From positions 67,955 to 114,563 of the forward strand of contig JBAWWA010000002.1 in NCBI GenBank assembly GCA_037146995.1: 46,609 nt of DNA, in the 5' to 3' direction. Below the pieces are notes generated by a model that saw only the letters and a list, made by a program, of their open reading frames with translations, was not told where the DNA came from and ran no database searches. The stretch is from a bacterium (GTDB lineage Bacteria; Patescibacteriota; Patescibacteriia; Patescibacteriales; GWE2-39-37). Shown here piece by piece: positions 2,883 to 46,609 of this stretch. A program made the position numbers and the translations under genes. Positions within the stretch are counted from its first letter, which is position 1. Each line of letters starts with the position of its first letter.

Positions 2883-2911
2883 TTGACAAATATTTAACAA
2901 TTTATTATAAA
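2883..2911 (+). promoter_or_regulatory. sigma70-type promoter of the antisense two-gene unit inside the atp operon
   Basis: TTGACA (2883-2888), 17 bp, TATAAA (2906-2911). Confidence 0.65.
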
Positions 2912-2959
2912 TTATATATCTTATGAACATTTTCACAAATCAATGCAATGGGAGGATTC

Positions 2960-3097
2960 ATGAAGATTATCGGTAACATTCTTTTTTTTGGCTTTATCGC
3001 TCTGCATTTTATTGTTGTCTCTGTCTTTATTGTTATACCAACAAAAATCATTAGCTACCTTATCAGACCACTTTTAAAAGGAGTAAAAAATGCCTAA
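2960..3097 (+). CDS. Small 45-aa hydrophobic protein (absent from ORF track)
   Basis: MKIIGNILFFGFIALHFIVVSVFIVIPTKIISYLIRPLLKGVKNA*; GGAGG just upstream of the ATG; its stop overlaps the next start (ATGCCTAA). Confidence 0.65.
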   Translation: MKIIGNILFFGFIALHFIVVSVFIVIPTKIISYLIRPLLKGVKNA

Positions 3098-3449
3098 ACA
3101 AGATCGATTTGCCAAAACCCTGAATGGTATAACCACATTTGGCATTAAGCCTTATAAATTCGTAATGCTGCTTAACTCAAGCCATCAACCTACGGAAATC
3201 AAGGCTTTTGACTGCTTCACTTGGAATCCTCGCACAAAAACCTTGTGGCTAAATCGAGCCCTCGACATTTATTCATCCGGTAACAGAATTTTCTTTAAAC
3301 ACTTGTCAACAATTGATGACAAGTTATTTTTAGCTCTAACCACAGAAGATGATATCAAGGATACTATTGAATTAATTGCAAAAACAGTTAATCTCAATAT
3401 CAAAAAAATTAAAGGCTTTGATTCAAATCAGACCTACGTCCTGTCCTAA
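3090..3449 (+). CDS. Hypothetical protein, 119 aa
   Basis: AAGGAG SD upstream; fills the atpG-atpD gap; followed by a terminator; no family recognised. Confidence 0.7.
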   Translation: MPKQDRFAKTLNGITTFGIKPYKFVMLLNSSHQPTEIKAFDCFTWNPRTKTLWLNRALDIYSSGNRIFFKHLSTIDDKLFLALTTEDDIKDTIELIAKTVNLNIKKIKGFDSNQTYVLS

Positions 3450-3471
3450 ATTACAATGAACATTTATACCT

Positions 3472-3496
3472 ACCTCGCTTAAAAGCGAGGTTTTTT
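3472..3496 (+). terminator. Intrinsic terminator, + strand only
   Basis: ACCTCGCTT-AA-AAGCGAGGT followed by a T-run; no U-tract on the minus strand. Confidence 0.75.
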
Positions 3497-4448
3497 ATTC
3501 AAGCGCTGCCCTGCCAGCACTAATTTCAGCAATTTCCTGAGTGATCTTACCTTGACGTATTTGATTGTAAGCCAAGGTTAAATCAGCTGACATATCACTA
3601 GCTGCATCAGTCGCGCTACGCATAGCCATCATTCTAGCTGAATGCTCAGAGGCACTCGATTCTAGAACGGCATGATATACCTGCATCTCCAGTAATCTCG
3701 GTATAATAAATTCAAGTACTTCAACCGGACTAGGTTCGACTTTGTACTGCAAATTTTCAGCCTTAATATTTAAATTTTCAGCTAATAAATCAATCTCATC
3801 CAACTGTTTTTCAATATCTATCTTTGATATTGGGAGTAATTGCCTAATTTTAGTTTTTTGATTCAGTGTCGAGATAAAATCAGTATAAATCACCACCACT
3901 TTATCATAATTTTTTTTAAGATACTCTTCAATAACAATATCAGAAACTGGTCTCACCAAATCAATTGAGGGCAAATTAGCAATTTCTGGAAAACTCGCCA
4001 CGATATGGCCTTTAATTTTTTTCACCATGGCCTCACCCTTTTTACCAATAGTTAGATAATCAACTTTAATATCAGAAGCATTGGTTGTAGCGATTTTTTT
4101 ACTTCCAACTCGATTAACTGCTAATTTTAAAAAGTTTGTTGACTCATCTTTAAGTTTTTTATTGATTTGAGCATTAAAAGACCCGCACAGGCCACGATTC
4201 GAAGAGACCACCAACATTAAAACACTTTTAACTTCACGAACTTCAAGTAAACCCTCATTACGACTCTCGAAAGCTTGAGCCAAGTTTGATAAAACTTGCC
4301 AGGCGCCTTGCGCGTAAGGCCTAATGCCCAAGACACTCTGAATCGCTCGACGCATCTTGGCAGCCGAAACCATCTCCATGGCTCGAGTAATTTTTTTGGT
4401 ACTATTTATCGATCTAATTCTTCTTTTTATATCAAGTGAACTTGCCAT
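3495..4448 (-). CDS. atpG: F1Fo ATP synthase gamma subunit
   Basis: KITRAMEMVSAAKM, RGLCGSFN, SEHSARMMAM, RQGKITQEIAEI. Confidence 0.97.
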   Translation of the reverse strand: MASSLDIKRRIRSINSTKKITRAMEMVSAAKMRRAIQSVLGIRPYAQGAWQVLSNLAQAFESRNEGLLEVREVKSVLMLVVSSNRGLCGSFNAQINKKLKDESTNFLKLAVNRVGSKKIATTNASDIKVDYLTIGKKGEAMVKKIKGHIVASFPEIANLPSIDLVRPVSDIVIEEYLKKNYDKVVVIYTDFISTLNQKTKIRQLLPISKIDIEKQLDEIDLLAENLNIKAENLQYKVEPSPVEVLEFIIPRLLEMQVYHAVLESSASEHSARMMAMRSATDAASDMSADLTLAYNQIRQGKITQEIAEISAGRAALE

Positions 4449-4518
4449 ATATCTTAACCGCTTTTTAGACTACATCTACAAAAAGCGCTTACTTATTTAT
4501 CCTATATTTATTATACAC

Positions 4519-44202: not shown

Positions 44203-44290
44203 ACTGGCATTTTCTCACAAAACTACAGCCTAGGCAAATAAAAAACCGCTCTCAAGCGATTTTTTAAAGTGTGTGTTTTAAGGTCTTTAA

Positions 44291-45499
44291 TTATTCTAAA
44301 ACCTCAATCAAATCACCCTGCTCACTACTTAAAACTTTTTCTGGCGCCAGTCCATGCACTGTAAAATAGCGCATAATAATAAAAGCGACCGTCAAACAGA
44401 ACGCCCCAAAAAAATACGGATAACTAAAATCCAGATTATACAAAAAGCCACCGACAATCGGACCAATAATCATCGACAGAGACAAAACAGAGGTCATAAT
44501 ACCCATAGCCTCTCCTCGCCTAGTTTCACCGGCTAAATTAGCAACTTTAGCGGAAGCGACAGCCCTTATAACCGTTTGTGTAAAAGCATTAATGATCAAG
44601 CCGGCAATAAAGACTGGCAAACTCTTAACCCCCATAAAAACAAAAGCTAAGGCAAAGAATAATAATAACCAAGACTCAAGAAAAGCTTGGGAGAATTTCT
44701 TTAGCCAAAAACGTGAAAGCAGTAAGCCCTGATTTAGGGCCATAATTATGCCCATACCAGTAAACATCAAACTAACATATGTTGCATTGAAGCCGAACAC
44801 CTCACCGACATACAACGCAAAAATAGTTTGCATCGTTGCGGTCGCTAGACCAAACATAAACCATGAAGCATAACGTGAACGCAAAACTCTATCATTTATA
44901 GCGGTAATTATTGGCCTAAAAGGATTAATCGAAATCCTGTCCCTATTGCGGTTGTGATTAGTCTCGGGCAGAAAGAAAAAGGCCATCAAAGCATTGATCG
45001 TCGCCAAACCGCCGACAAACCAAAATGGCAAAACATGAGAAAACTTGCCTAGAGCCGCACCTAGTATTGGGCCGATAATAAAAGCAATACCAAAGACTGC
45101 ACCGATCAGTCCCATATTTGCAGTACGTTCCTTGTCATCTTTGGCAATATCCTGAAGATAGCTTTGAGCAGTTGAGAAATTTCCAGCGGCTGAGCCATCG
45201 ATAATACGCCCGACAAAAAGAAACGGGATGCTCTTGGCACTGGCAAAAACCAACCAACCCACAGCCGAAGAGGCAATACTAATTATTAATGATGGTCTTC
45301 GACCGAATCTATCAGAAAATGCGCCGAGTATCGGTGCTGAAAAAAAGGCAAAAACCGAAAATACAGCGAACAAGGCCATTACCAAAGTTGGTGAAGCATC
45401 GAATTGCTTGACATAAAATGGTAGAATGGGAATTATCACACCCATACCAATTACATCAATTGCCACAGTGGCTAAAATAATTATTTTTTCTTTGGTCAT
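44291..45499 (-). CDS. MFS transporter, TetA/DHA1-like (start revised to ATG 45499)
   Basis: DVIGMGVIIPILP, motif A GAFSDRFGRR, GRIIDG, motif C GPILG, LPET. Confidence 0.92.
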   Translation of the reverse strand: MTKEKIIILATVAIDVIGMGVIIPILPFYVKQFDASPTLVMALFAVFSVFAFFSAPILGAFSDRFGRRPSLIISIASSAVGWLVFASAKSIPFLFVGRIIDGSAAGNFSTAQSYLQDIAKDDKERTANMGLIGAVFGIAFIIGPILGAALGKFSHVLPFWFVGGLATINALMAFFFLPETNHNRNRDRISINPFRPIITAINDRVLRSRYASWFMFGLATATMQTIFALYVGEVFGFNATYVSLMFTGMGIIMALNQGLLLSRFWLKKFSQAFLESWLLLFFALAFVFMGVKSLPVFIAGLIINAFTQTVIRAVASAKVANLAGETRRGEAMGIMTSVLSLSMIIGPIVGGFLYNLDFSYPYFFGAFCLTVAFIIMRYFTVHGLAPEKVLSSEQGDLIEVLE

Positions 45500-45546
45500 A
45501 ATTTTTAATAAAAAGGGCCCTTTTGTAAGGACCCTGAGAAAATCAT

Positions 45547-46023
45547 TTAAAGCTGCAAATCGATAACCACCACACCTCCTTGTGATAGTTCGCAACTATT
45601 TGAATTAACCGGCAAGACATTATTCAAAAACCAACTGGAAAATATTTGATAATCACTCATATCTCCGACATGGGTTATTAAGACCACATTATCATGGTCA
45701 GTTATGAGACCATTAATCAAGGCGACCAGACCACGCAAATTGCTTGGCTCGGAATTGTGGGGTTTACGAGAATTCAAAGGACTACAAGGAATCGGCATGT
45801 TTGTATCAAATTCGCAGGAAAAAAGATAGGCCATTTCCTGGGCACATCTAGTTGAAGCTGTCGCTATAACCGTCTTGCCATCAAGCATTTTGGTTTTGAT
45901 TTTTCGTGCTAGTTCCTTGACACTTAACCTGTCAAACTCCGATAGACCGCTACCACATTTGTGATTAAGCGGTTTTACCACCAATAATCGTCGACTATTT
46001 TCTGCTTCCGTCTTATCTGGCAT
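45547..46023 (-). CDS. Degenerate SixA/histidine-phosphatase-fold protein (start revised to ATG 46023)
   Basis: AAGGAGG SD; LLVV..LS...KELAR..VIAT...RCAQEMA..NVVLITH..LSQGGVVVID layout, but no RHG motif. Confidence 0.6.
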   Translation of the reverse strand: MPDKTEAENSRRLLVVKPLNHKCGSGLSEFDRLSVKELARKIKTKMLDGKTVIATASTRCAQEMAYLFSCEFDTNMPIPCSPLNSRKPHNSEPSNLRGLVALINGLITDHDNVVLITHVGDMSDYQIFSSWFLNNVLPVNSNSCELSQGGVVVIDLQL

Positions 46024-46184
46024 GTCCTGCCTCCTTAAAAAGAACTTAGCCCAAAATTGGGCAGGTCTCAAAAATAAAAAATAGCTCAATTTGTTTGAGT
46101 TATTTATTTTTAGACCGTAATTCAAAATAACATTTTTTTTAGAATAAATCAAGACTTCAGATGCCACAATAAAAGGCTAAATTA

Positions 46185-46213
46185 TTGACATTAATCGCAA
46201 ATATTAATAGTAT
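46185..46213 (+). promoter_or_regulatory. sigma70-type promoter followed by boxA-like GCTCATTCAAAA
   Basis: TTGACA-17-TAGTAT. Confidence 0.65.
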
Positions 46214-46268
46214 ATAGCCAGCTCATTCAAAAAAATCACGCTAAAATCATATCATAGGAGGGTGAAAA

Positions 46269-46609
46269 ATGACAAAACAAAACTTTGTAATGAATCATCA
46301 AGAAGTTGGGGACATCAGACTGGCAAGTTTTTTCCTCTATGAGCTTTTAACCAAGCTAGCGCCGTGTTTCAAGAATAAATTAGATCTCAGTTACGATTTT
46401 CGCATTACCCTAAATTGTCGTCACGAAATCGTGATGGCCATTTTTGAAAAAATACCGAATCCAAAACCATCAGTGAAAAAAGCCTATTTCAACGAGCCAT
46501 TACTGATTATTGAACAGGATTACAGCGATAACAGTTTTATTTTGTATGTCGACATCGAGCTTAAAAAAAATCAAAAAACTAAAAGTCGCATAAGCGACTC
46601 AATAAAATC
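46269..46609 (+). CDS. Hypothetical protein, truncated at window end (absent from ORF track)
   Basis: AGGAGGGTG SD; MTKQNFVMNHQEVGDIRL... open to the end of the window. Confidence 0.7.
   Translation, partial: MTKQNFVMNHQEVGDIRLASFFLYELLTKLAPCFKNKLDLSYDFRITLNCRHEIVMAIFEKIPNPKPSVKKAYFNEPLLIIEQDYSDNSFILYVDIELKKNQKTKSRISDSIK

Follow-up and report, generated by a model that had tools for sequence, protein, structure and literature searches.

We describe a boxA-like leader motif in a genome of the patescibacterial order Patescibacteriales (GTDB family-level lineage GWE2-39-37), found in a 46,609-nt stretch (assembly GCA_037146995.1, contig JBAWWA010000002.1, hereafter C2, positions 67955-114563; "the window" denotes this whole stretch). 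The motif, t-G-N-W-C-W-T-T-n-a-A-a, lies shortly after the -10 box of a dispersed class of genes with strong Shine-Dalgarno (SD) sequences. The counts given below establish the motif, where and on which strand it lies, that it goes with the SD, that it equals the boxA core of the rRNA leaders and that it is spread through the order; from these we infer that it is bound by NusB and ribosomal protein S10 (NusE), with a regulatory outcome. We estimate at roughly 55% the probability that the motif is a nascent-RNA site for NusB/S10 on leadered, SD-dependent accessory mRNAs.

Patescibacteria (the candidate phyla radiation, CPR) are abundant and almost uncultured, and to our knowledge essentially nothing is known about their gene regulation. 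The window belongs to a 1.20-Mb genome (34 contigs, ~39% GC, 94.8% completeness), for which crude gene calling gave 1035 genes and 90% coding DNA. In several of the related genomes, which measure 0.7-1.4 Mb, the 16S gene is split or carries an insert. Pfam annotation of 44 open reading frames (ORFs) of the window identified an F-type atp operon, metG, rpsA, recG, ppsA, lgt, rpsT, holA, murD, polA and others, and the ORFs without a Pfam family lie scattered among these annotated genes. An earlier note on the window had set such "orphan" units, with promoter, GNWCWTT-type motif, strong SD and terminator, apart from the housekeeping genes, and had suggested Nus antitermination, a dedicated factor or a shared phage or mobile origin as explanations.

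The motif is enriched directly downstream of promoters

All nine motif strings of the earlier note were located in the window (Table 1; for minus-strand sites the coordinate is that of the 5', i.e. high, end), as were two additional leader copies, 36435+ and 46045-. The promoters are mostly of the TTGAC(A/G)-17 type, as had been claimed: seven of the nine sites follow TTGACA or TTGACG, a 17-nt spacer and TAnnnT (TATAAA at 2925+), the exceptions being 26404- (TTGACA-18-TATATA) and 23042- (a weak promoter only). The gaps between the -10 box and the G of the motif, 7, 7, 7, 8, 11, 13, 15, 16 and 17 nt, reproduce the described spacing of 7-17 nt.

Scanning the genome with the pattern TTGACN-N16-18-TANNNT gave 282 matches; 146 had the -10 box in the intergenic 10% of the genome, and the spacer was 17 nt long in 121 of these 146. 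The TTGACN-17-TANNNT matches form a real promoter class. Transcription starts are given throughout as positions predicted relative to the -10 box. Outside the window, GNWCWTT was present 4-27 nt after the -10 box of 22 out of 137 TTGACN-17±1-TANNNT promoters, compared with 3.9 expected (Poisson p 2e-10), and in 8 of 274 antisense and upstream control windows, which supports the enrichment that the earlier note had left unproven. The positional profile of 120 promoters with the 17-nt spacer showed that GNWCWTT starts are concentrated 0-29 nt past the -10 box (9, 15 and 5 in successive 10-nt bins, compared with ~1 elsewhere), while the profile of the reverse complement was flat.

De novo expectation maximization (EM) over the 34 nt after the -10 box of the 146 intergenic promoters converged on tt-G-w-w-C-w-T-T-n-a-A-a in ~40 of them, with 2.5 bits of information at the G, 1.5 at the C and 1.0 and 1.35 at the two T's; EM over 50 nt after the -10 box returned the SD and not this motif. 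The resulting position weight matrix (PWM) scored at least 9.5 bits in 27 of the 146 promoters on which it had been trained, compared with 1 antisense control, 0 upstream controls and 0.67 expected from shuffles. Equal frequency in shuffled controls, which the earlier note had named as grounds for abandoning the motif, was thus not what we observed.

The motif is non-palindromic, unrepeated and strand-specific. Among the 150 order-wide matches listed (see below), the gap from the -10 box to the G was 2-3 nt in none, 4-6 nt in 11 and 7-9 nt in 32, followed by a plateau up to 25 nt, so that the sense-strand motif begins no closer than 4-7 nt to the -10 box, within the region predicted to be transcribed. 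Copies also occur ~100 nt (36435+) and ~130 nt (16S leader) downstream of promoters. The strand specificity, the lack of a palindrome, the variable spacing with a floor near the expected start, and the copies that lie far downstream or precede an SD without a promoter favour a transcribed element over an operator. In 27 folded leaders, the mean predicted unpaired probability of the motif (0.55) did not differ from that of other AU-rich leader windows (0.58, p 0.63).

The motif matches the boxA core of the rRNA leaders

The earlier note had proposed a comparison with the boxA of the genome's own rRNA leaders, and this comparison revealed that the mRNA motif is the boxA core of both the 16S and the 23S leader. 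The 16S leader contains GGTACTTTAACAATTGAATAG (GTACTTTAACAATTGAATAG; core GTACTTT) ~130 nt after the 16S promoter, and the 23S leader contains TTGAACATTCACAATTGAATAG (GAACATTCACAATTGAATAG; core GAACATT), which scores 11.7 bits with the PWM trained on mRNA leaders. The core and tail G-N-W-C-N-T-T-R-A-[CA]-A-A were found in 13 of 17 16S leaders (those of 16 relatives and of this genome itself); the variable positions of these leaders, 2, 3 and 5, are those of the mRNA motif. The 16S and 23S genes (C3:30051-31548 and C1:28687-31765) are unlinked, each with its own TTGACA-17 promoter, and their leaders have the block ACAATTGAATAG in common after boxA. The motif was found upstream of only 2 of 39 tRNA genes.

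The boxA consensus for mRNA and rRNA has been reported as GYTCTTTAANA, which C4T/T6C inactivates (PMC5725501). According to the work on the Aquifex NusB-NusE-BoxA structure (PMC3177189), NusB-NusE recognizes 8 nt, does not tolerate transversions at G2, C5 and U6 and holds U8 in a pocket; the numbering of that work is one higher than ours. The frequencies in our motif (G1 0.96, C4 0.77, T6 0.87, T7 0.98, A9-A11 0.58-0.79) agree with the boxA consensus at these positions, its information profile matches G2, C5, U7 and U8 of the scheme of PMC3177189, and G is excluded (0.02) at the equivalent of U6. The motif has in common with the system of PMC3177189 a G..C.UU core followed by A-rich sequence on the sense strand of a transcribed leader, with the information confined to the ~8 nt contacted by NusB-NusE. 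At positions 2, 3 and 5 it reads N, W and W (A 0.52), compared with Y, T and T in the consensus of PMC5725501. Unlike the rrn boxA, it is present on ~40 mRNA leaders of a 1.2-Mb genome and not on rRNA alone, and it lies at the very 5' end of the transcript.

Motif-bearing genes form a Shine-Dalgarno-led class

The 3' end of the 16S rRNA carries the canonical anti-SD (..CACCTCCTTTCT), for which the earlier note had asked along with nusB (present, see below). Of the 1035 genes, 157 have a strict SD 5-mer ahead of one of their first start candidates, compared with 58 of 896 internal controls, from which it follows that roughly a tenth of the genes (~10-15%) are truly SD-led. The region upstream of non-SD genes is A-rich and G-poor, with T at -1. 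Genome-wide, TAnnnT ends exactly 6 nt before the start of 96 non-SD genes (baseline ~40), and the sequence suggests that a subset of these genes is leaderless, with orf551 at 14973 and murD at 40891 as examples in the window. In line with the earlier description, none of the housekeeping genes named there has an SD 5-mer at its start, and their upstream regions are A/T-rich. The rpsT gene had been described as an exception, but this rests on a wrong, over-extended start (the listed TTG 37832): the likely start of the S20-like N-terminus is ATG 37914, which lies 20 nt past a TATAAT and is preceded by no more than a weak AAGGA (37888-37916, plus strand).

Against this SD-poor background, the motif was found before 34 of 153 SD genes and 11 of 860 non-SD genes (Fisher 1e-20), with 2 and 24 in the respective antisense controls. 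Among promoters located at most 200 nt from a start, an SD of at least 5 nt was present in 19 of 26 with the motif and in 22 of 76 others. We also examined the 82 intergenic sites scoring at least 9.5 bits: an SD, a start codon and an ORF of at least 30 aa followed within 160 nt in 47 and within 60 nt in 35, compared with 327 and 129, respectively, of 3000 random intergenic positions. An SD followed 27 of the 30 sites with a promoter and 20 of the 52 without a strict promoter nearby. The distance from the motif G to the SD ranges from 11 to 128 nt.

The distinct gene class proposed by the earlier note, defined by leader motif and strong SD, is thereby borne out. Neither promoter nor terminator sets it apart. 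TTGACA-17-TAnnnT promoters are likewise used by rRNA, tRNA and core genes, and strong terminators are found at core genes as well; in the case of rpsA, the promoter lies at 17420-17392 and the terminator at 16069-16038.

Proteins encoded by the motif-bearing units

The orphan character of the class was also supported: in a Pfam scan of the unit proteins that left out four of them (loci L075-L078), a family was found above the cut-off for 11 of 41 (2 of 11 in the window and 9 of 30 outside it), compared with 26 of 33 other genes of the window. The families outside the window are CofD, Tad4, a hexapeptide transferase, GNAT, a methyltransferase, DHDPS, two PAS hybrid histidine kinases and PhoH-PIN. 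The proteins are often small, with signal-peptide-like or hydrophobic N-termini, and for orf274 only 6 homologues (41-51% identity) were found among 5.8 billion proteins. The Tad4 match is a 102-aa protein (L048, C2:55538-55846, minus strand; E 4e-9, 37 bits, above the cut-off); Tad4 is an inhibitor of type I Thoeris, of an anti-defence family usual in phages. In the window, one motif-and-SD unit encodes ResIII/Helicase_C domains fused to six DUF4379 treble-clef zinc-finger repeats.

Distribution and turnover in related genomes

In a scan of 101 genomes of the order, the promoter-plus-motif arrangement was matched 339 times, in 90 of the genomes, whereas the same promoter with the motif reversed gave 18 matches in 17 genomes. 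For 20 other genomes we inspected the match listed first, and in 17 of them it was followed by an SD and a start codon. Among 150 genomes of the phylum from outside the order the excess was weaker (97 matches in 59 genomes, compared with 37 in 30 for the control). The same architecture, including GATCTTTAACAATT..AGGAGGTG..ATG, is present on a 284-kb contig of another family; in a partial genome (G003, 304 kb, 51% GC), 29 promoter-like matches showed no clear enrichment of the motif. Four genomes of other families of the phylum (G167, G213, G191, G114) have a conserved TAGNCAATTTTCWNG directly after the -10 box and a CAATTTTC core 5 nt further on; this second arrangement, met among the matches to the control pattern, recurs at no fewer than 11 promoters of one lineage.

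Individual leaders differ in how well they are kept. Orthologues of the lyase-family gene of the window in two genomes of another genus (51-52% identity) retain TTGACA-17-TAAGGT, a 12-nt gap, GCACATT and the SD; G1, C4, T6 and T7 of the motif are kept, and positions 2, 3 and 5 differ. The arrangement is not kept in the lyase orthologues of G001 and G020, and the PhoH-PIN gene was found in only 3 of 30 relatives. Comparison of orthologous leaders suggests that the sites turn over and that motif and SD tend to appear together.

Nus factors and comparison with known systems

NusB was found in all 31 genomes of the order sample used for NusB and Rho, and NusA, NusG and S10 are encoded in this genome. 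The NusB protein keeps the FVNGVL and VDRN segments, which align to the U8-contacting residues of Aquifex NusB in solved structures. Rho (Rho_RNA_bind) was found in none of the 31 genomes, although 24 of them have a completeness of 90% or more. This makes classical anti-Rho antitermination, the form of Nus control put forward in the earlier note, unlikely, and neither suppression of Rho-dependent termination nor suppression of termination in the leader, as in rrn and lambda, was in evidence. The failure to detect Rho, the lack of enrichment of leader terminators (see below) and the short single-gene units with terminators of their own together argue against classical antitermination. The role of the rrn boxA against Rho cannot apply here, with Rho in 0 of the 31 genomes and SuhB not found in this one.

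The leader of suhB offers a closer parallel. In Escherichia coli and Salmonella, a Nus complex assembled on boxA in the suhB 5' untranslated region (UTR) blocks access of the 30S subunit and represses translation (Baniulyte et al. 2017, PMC5725501), independently of the boxA-SD distance up to 100 nt. The same study counted 0-7 putative boxA sites in each gammaproteobacterial genome; it describes "only a few regulatory targets" for a species, with Nus or translation genes making up many of these. In common with suhB as described there, the motif lies in an mRNA leader upstream of the SD, here at 11-128 nt; as counted above, 47 of the 82 intergenic sites precede an SD and start codon in this way. 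Unlike suhB (PMC5725501), dozens of sites per genome are present, on accessory or orphan genes. Neither SuhB in the complex nor autoregulation of a Nus-factor gene was seen in this genome, no conserved site precedes nusB, and Rho termination, one arm of the suhB mechanism, cannot play a part.

At the nut sites of phage lambda, which combine boxA with boxB, a boxA near the transcript start modifies the elongating polymerase. Here, neither an N-like protein nor a conserved boxB hairpin turned up, although no search was aimed at the boxB/boxC context; a hairpin follows the motif in some leaders (33295-33280, 36358-36382) but not in general.

In Bacteroidia, translation is SD-poor, ribosomes sequester the anti-SD and the rare SD-bearing rpsU is reported to be specially regulated (PMC7797042, PMC13000453). 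As in those bacteria, a canonical 16S anti-SD coexists here with a majority of genes lacking an SD and a minority having strong ones; in contrast to them, the minority comprises ~100 genes and not one, and a third of it carries the boxA-like motif. The sole bS21-like match in this genome (L243, C4:28941-29036, plus strand) scores 21.4 bits, below the Pfam cut-off, with a canonical promoter upstream (C4:+28850). Our literature search found no report linking boxA or NusB targets to the bacteria studied here, nor one describing their SD usage.

Proposed mechanism and alternative explanations

According to the mechanism that we propose, a boxA-type element would be transcribed at the start of leadered mRNAs, or a few to ~25 nt after it, and the nascent motif would be bound by NusB and S10, as in rRNA leaders. 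Together with NusA and NusG, NusB/S10 could tether the leader to the elongating polymerase or modify the elongation complex. Dozens of independent units, mostly of one gene, would have acquired the element; each has an ordinary sigma-70-type promoter, a strong SD and a lineage-specific or accessory protein. Such post-initiation control may tie the expression of SD-dependent genes to the supply of free NusB/S10, in either an activating or a repressing sense, and could take the form of Nus-assisted elongation or, following the example of E. coli suhB, of a Nus-dependent gate that controls whether 30S subunits reach the SD. The tie to the SD and the boxA-SD distances, which fall largely within the up-to-100-nt range of suhB, place the system closer to suhB than to classical antitermination, and Nus-dependent post-initiation gating of SD-led accessory genes is the form that we favour on the predicted leaders.

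Several observations weigh against recognition by NusB/S10. The proteobacterial consensus is much stricter than our motif at positions 2, 3 and 5, half of our sites show A in place of a U of the E. coli boxA, and the 3' tail ACAATTGAATAG of the rRNA copies is mostly absent from the mRNA sites. The motif amounts to only ~9-13 bits, so that individual sites may be due to chance, and of the 603 matches of at least 9 bits in the genome most lie in coding DNA. CofD orthologues mostly lack both signals (motif in 3 of 27, SD in 4, both in 2), indicating that the architecture turns over fast. The genome yielded no protein of the SuhB family (Inositol_P). Leaders with the motif contain terminator-like hairpins no more often than those without it (2 of 18, compared with 8 of 69), which gives no sign of read-through of an attenuator. 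Finally, although GCACCTT abuts the ATG of this genome's nusB, a boxA-like site is not conserved there (at least 8 bits at 4 of 30 loci, one of them inside the coding sequence), so that Nus autoregulation of the proteobacterial type is not seen. In many relatives (L112-L140), the region upstream of nusB contains short tandem or inverted simple repeats, e.g. CCTAATAT or AACTTT(C)TA units.

The degeneracy at boxA positions 2, 3 and 5, the missing ACAATTGAATAG tail and the scarcity of the motif upstream of tRNA genes are also what would be expected if the motif were a 5'-UTR element read by a factor other than NusB/S10, with a partial or convergent likeness to boxA. Such an element could serve in translation, as an enhancer or standby site, in RNA processing or stability, or as the target of a dedicated RNA-binding regulator, and the strong link to SD-led translation would fit such a role; the "epsilon" enhancer of phage T7 gene 10 is a similar A/U-rich leader sequence of the CUUUA type. 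However, the 16S and 23S leaders of this genome both have the same core, as do 13 of the 17 16S leaders examined, for which a single reader protein for all copies is the simplest reading, and the distance to the SD is not fixed. We regard another reader as the strongest competitor of NusB/S10, although a doubtful one. Three specific readings of the motif were rejected: pairing to a fixed site in 16S rRNA is opposed by the variation at positions 2, 3 and 5, an RNase E-type site does not fit the GTTC and GATC variants, and a second -35 box or a box for an extracytoplasmic function (ECF) sigma factor or sigma-54 does not fit the register and the variable positions, with no fixed downstream partner among the matches listed.

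That the motif marks a coherent gene class and is concentrated in the first 30 bp past the -10 box could also mean that it acts as DNA, as an operator or as a promoter-proximal element read by RNA polymerase or sigma in a regulon of accessory genes. A site of this kind would hardly be expected to lack a palindrome or repeat and to be strictly strand-specific, to lie anywhere from 4 to at least 25 nt from the -10 box with the lower bound at the expected transcription start, or to recur ~100-130 nt downstream of promoters and before an SD at 20 of 52 promoter-less sites. We consider a DNA site unlikely.

Descent of all units from one mobile, phage or duplicated cassette, the other origin raised in the earlier note, is highly improbable. 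In its favour, every unit is a compact block that has a promoter and a terminator to itself, one of the units lies inside the atp operon and one encodes the Tad4 protein; the codon usage of genes with SD and motif is also atypical (log-likelihood ratio per codon 0.134 compared with 0.201, p 8e-7; GC content at third codon positions 0.396 compared with 0.361). However, the proteins are unrelated except for the two hybrid histidine kinases, and the leaders, overlapping extraction windows aside, share only 14-19 nt, so that a common mobile origin is unsupported; homology among cassettes and shared flanks were not found. Moreover, the promoter is of the host's general type, which also serves rRNA and tRNA, the motif is the host's own rRNA boxA core, and lyase orthologues in another genus keep the arrangement. 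Chance in AT-rich intergenic DNA, to which the low information content and the many coding matches might point, is refuted by the excess over expectation (22 of 137 promoters, with 3.9 expected), by the PWM controls (1, 0 and 0.67) and by the 339 order-wide matches compared with 18.

Motif-bearing units of the window

The motif sites and associated features of the window are listed in Table 1. One complete unit, comprising promoter, motif, the 45-aa hydrophobic ORF, orf119 and terminator, lies at 2883-3491 on the plus strand inside the F-type atp operon, between atpG (3495-4448) and atpD (1456-2889), both on the minus strand; atpD has a promoter-like site of its own at 2938-2911, divergent from that of the unit. 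In the orf68/orf77 leader, a hairpin, GGGAGGAAGTTCAAATATCCTCCCC, followed by a T-run is located between two boxA-like copies. An SD-like GGGAGG pairs with CCTCCC in this hairpin, which could therefore act in termination or attenuation, or mimic an SD. For orf206 (158 aa), the weak motif is fused to the SD AAGGAGG, and the true start is ATG 46023.

Table 1. Promoters, boxA-like motifs and genes of the motif-bearing units in the window (PWM scores in bits)
Feature	Coordinates	Strand	Motif (score)	Details
Small-ORF/orf119 unit, promoter	2883..2911	+		TTGACA-17-TATAAA
Small-ORF/orf119 unit, motif	2925..2935	+	GAACATTTTCA (7.0)	13 nt past the -10 box
Small ORF (45 aa, hydrophobic)	2960-3097	+		SD GGGAGG at 2950
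orf119	3090-3449	+		SD AAGGAG; terminator 3472-3491
orf121, upstream motif	23032..23042	-	GAACATTTAAA (10.1)	
orf121	22598-22963	-		SD AGGGG; weak promoter, 2 mismatches in -35
orf222, promoter	23806-23778	-		TTGACA-17-TAAGGT
orf222, motif	23760-23750	-	GTACTTTAAAA (11.0)	SD AAAGGGGA; start ATG 23725
Helicase/DUF4379 gene, promoter and motif	26394..26441	-	GCACTTTTAAA (12.3), 26404-26394	TTGACA-18-TATATA
Helicase/DUF4379 gene	23870-26356	-		SD AAGGAG; terminator 23860-23838
orf93, promoter	29706-29734	+		TTGACA-17-TACTTT
orf93, motif	29750-29760	+	GATCTTTACAT (9.5)	
orf93	29813-30094	+		SD TGGAGG at 29800; terminator 30106-30135
orf274, promoter and motif	31693..31748	-	GTTCTTTAAAA (11.3), 31703-31693	TTGACA-17-TAGTCT
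orf274	30847-31671	-		SD AAAGGAGAGGAG; terminator 30841-30815
Lyase-family gene, promoter and motif	33296..33346	-	GATCTTTCAGA (10.7), 33306-33296	TTGACG-17-TAAGGT
Lyase-family gene	31790-33253	-		SD GGGAGAG; terminator 31786-31759
orf68/orf77 unit, promoter	36298-36326	+		TTGACA-17-TATATT
orf68/orf77 unit, first motif	36334-36344	+	GATCATTATAG (9.2)	
orf68/orf77 unit, leader hairpin and T-run	36358-36390	+		
orf68/orf77 unit, second motif	36435-36445	+	GCTCATTACAA (13.3)	site string TTGCTCATTACAAT
orf68/orf77 unit, leader	36298..36462	+		SD GGAGGG; start ATG 36462; terminator 36897-36918
orf113, promoter to start	46185..46269	+	GCTCATTCAAA (12.5), 46221-46231	TTGACA-17-TAGTAT; SD AGGAGGG; ATG 46269
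orf206, weak motif	46023..46045	-	GTTCTTTTTAA (6.0)	reads GTTCTTTTTAAGGAGG..ATG

Significance

The combination of promoter, boxA-like motif and SD provides an annotation rule that flags the real starts of small orphan genes missed or mis-started by gene callers; the 45-aa ORF at 2960, the start of orf206 at 46023, the lyase-family gene, orf222 and rpsT are examples. It also offers a route into a mostly SD-less mode of translation in a cell with a canonical anti-SD, and a testable handle on gene regulation in the CPR.

Outside rRNA, boxA has so far been documented for a handful of proteobacterial genes. If NusB/S10 does read the motif, the genes described here would form the largest proposed Nus-factor regulon, with dozens of mRNAs per 1-Mb genome, a link to the rare SD-led genes and conservation in ~90% of the 101 genomes of the order. 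A further and more tentative possibility is that NusB-S10/boxA has been co-opted from rRNA synthesis into a global regulator, with the core genes being SD-independent and about a third of the SD-dependent, lineage-specific (possibly host-interaction) genes being gated co-transcriptionally through a 5'-terminal boxA. In that case, the expression of accessory genes would follow free S10/NusB, and hence the ribosome-building status of the cell, in organisms without Rho and with few transcription factors.

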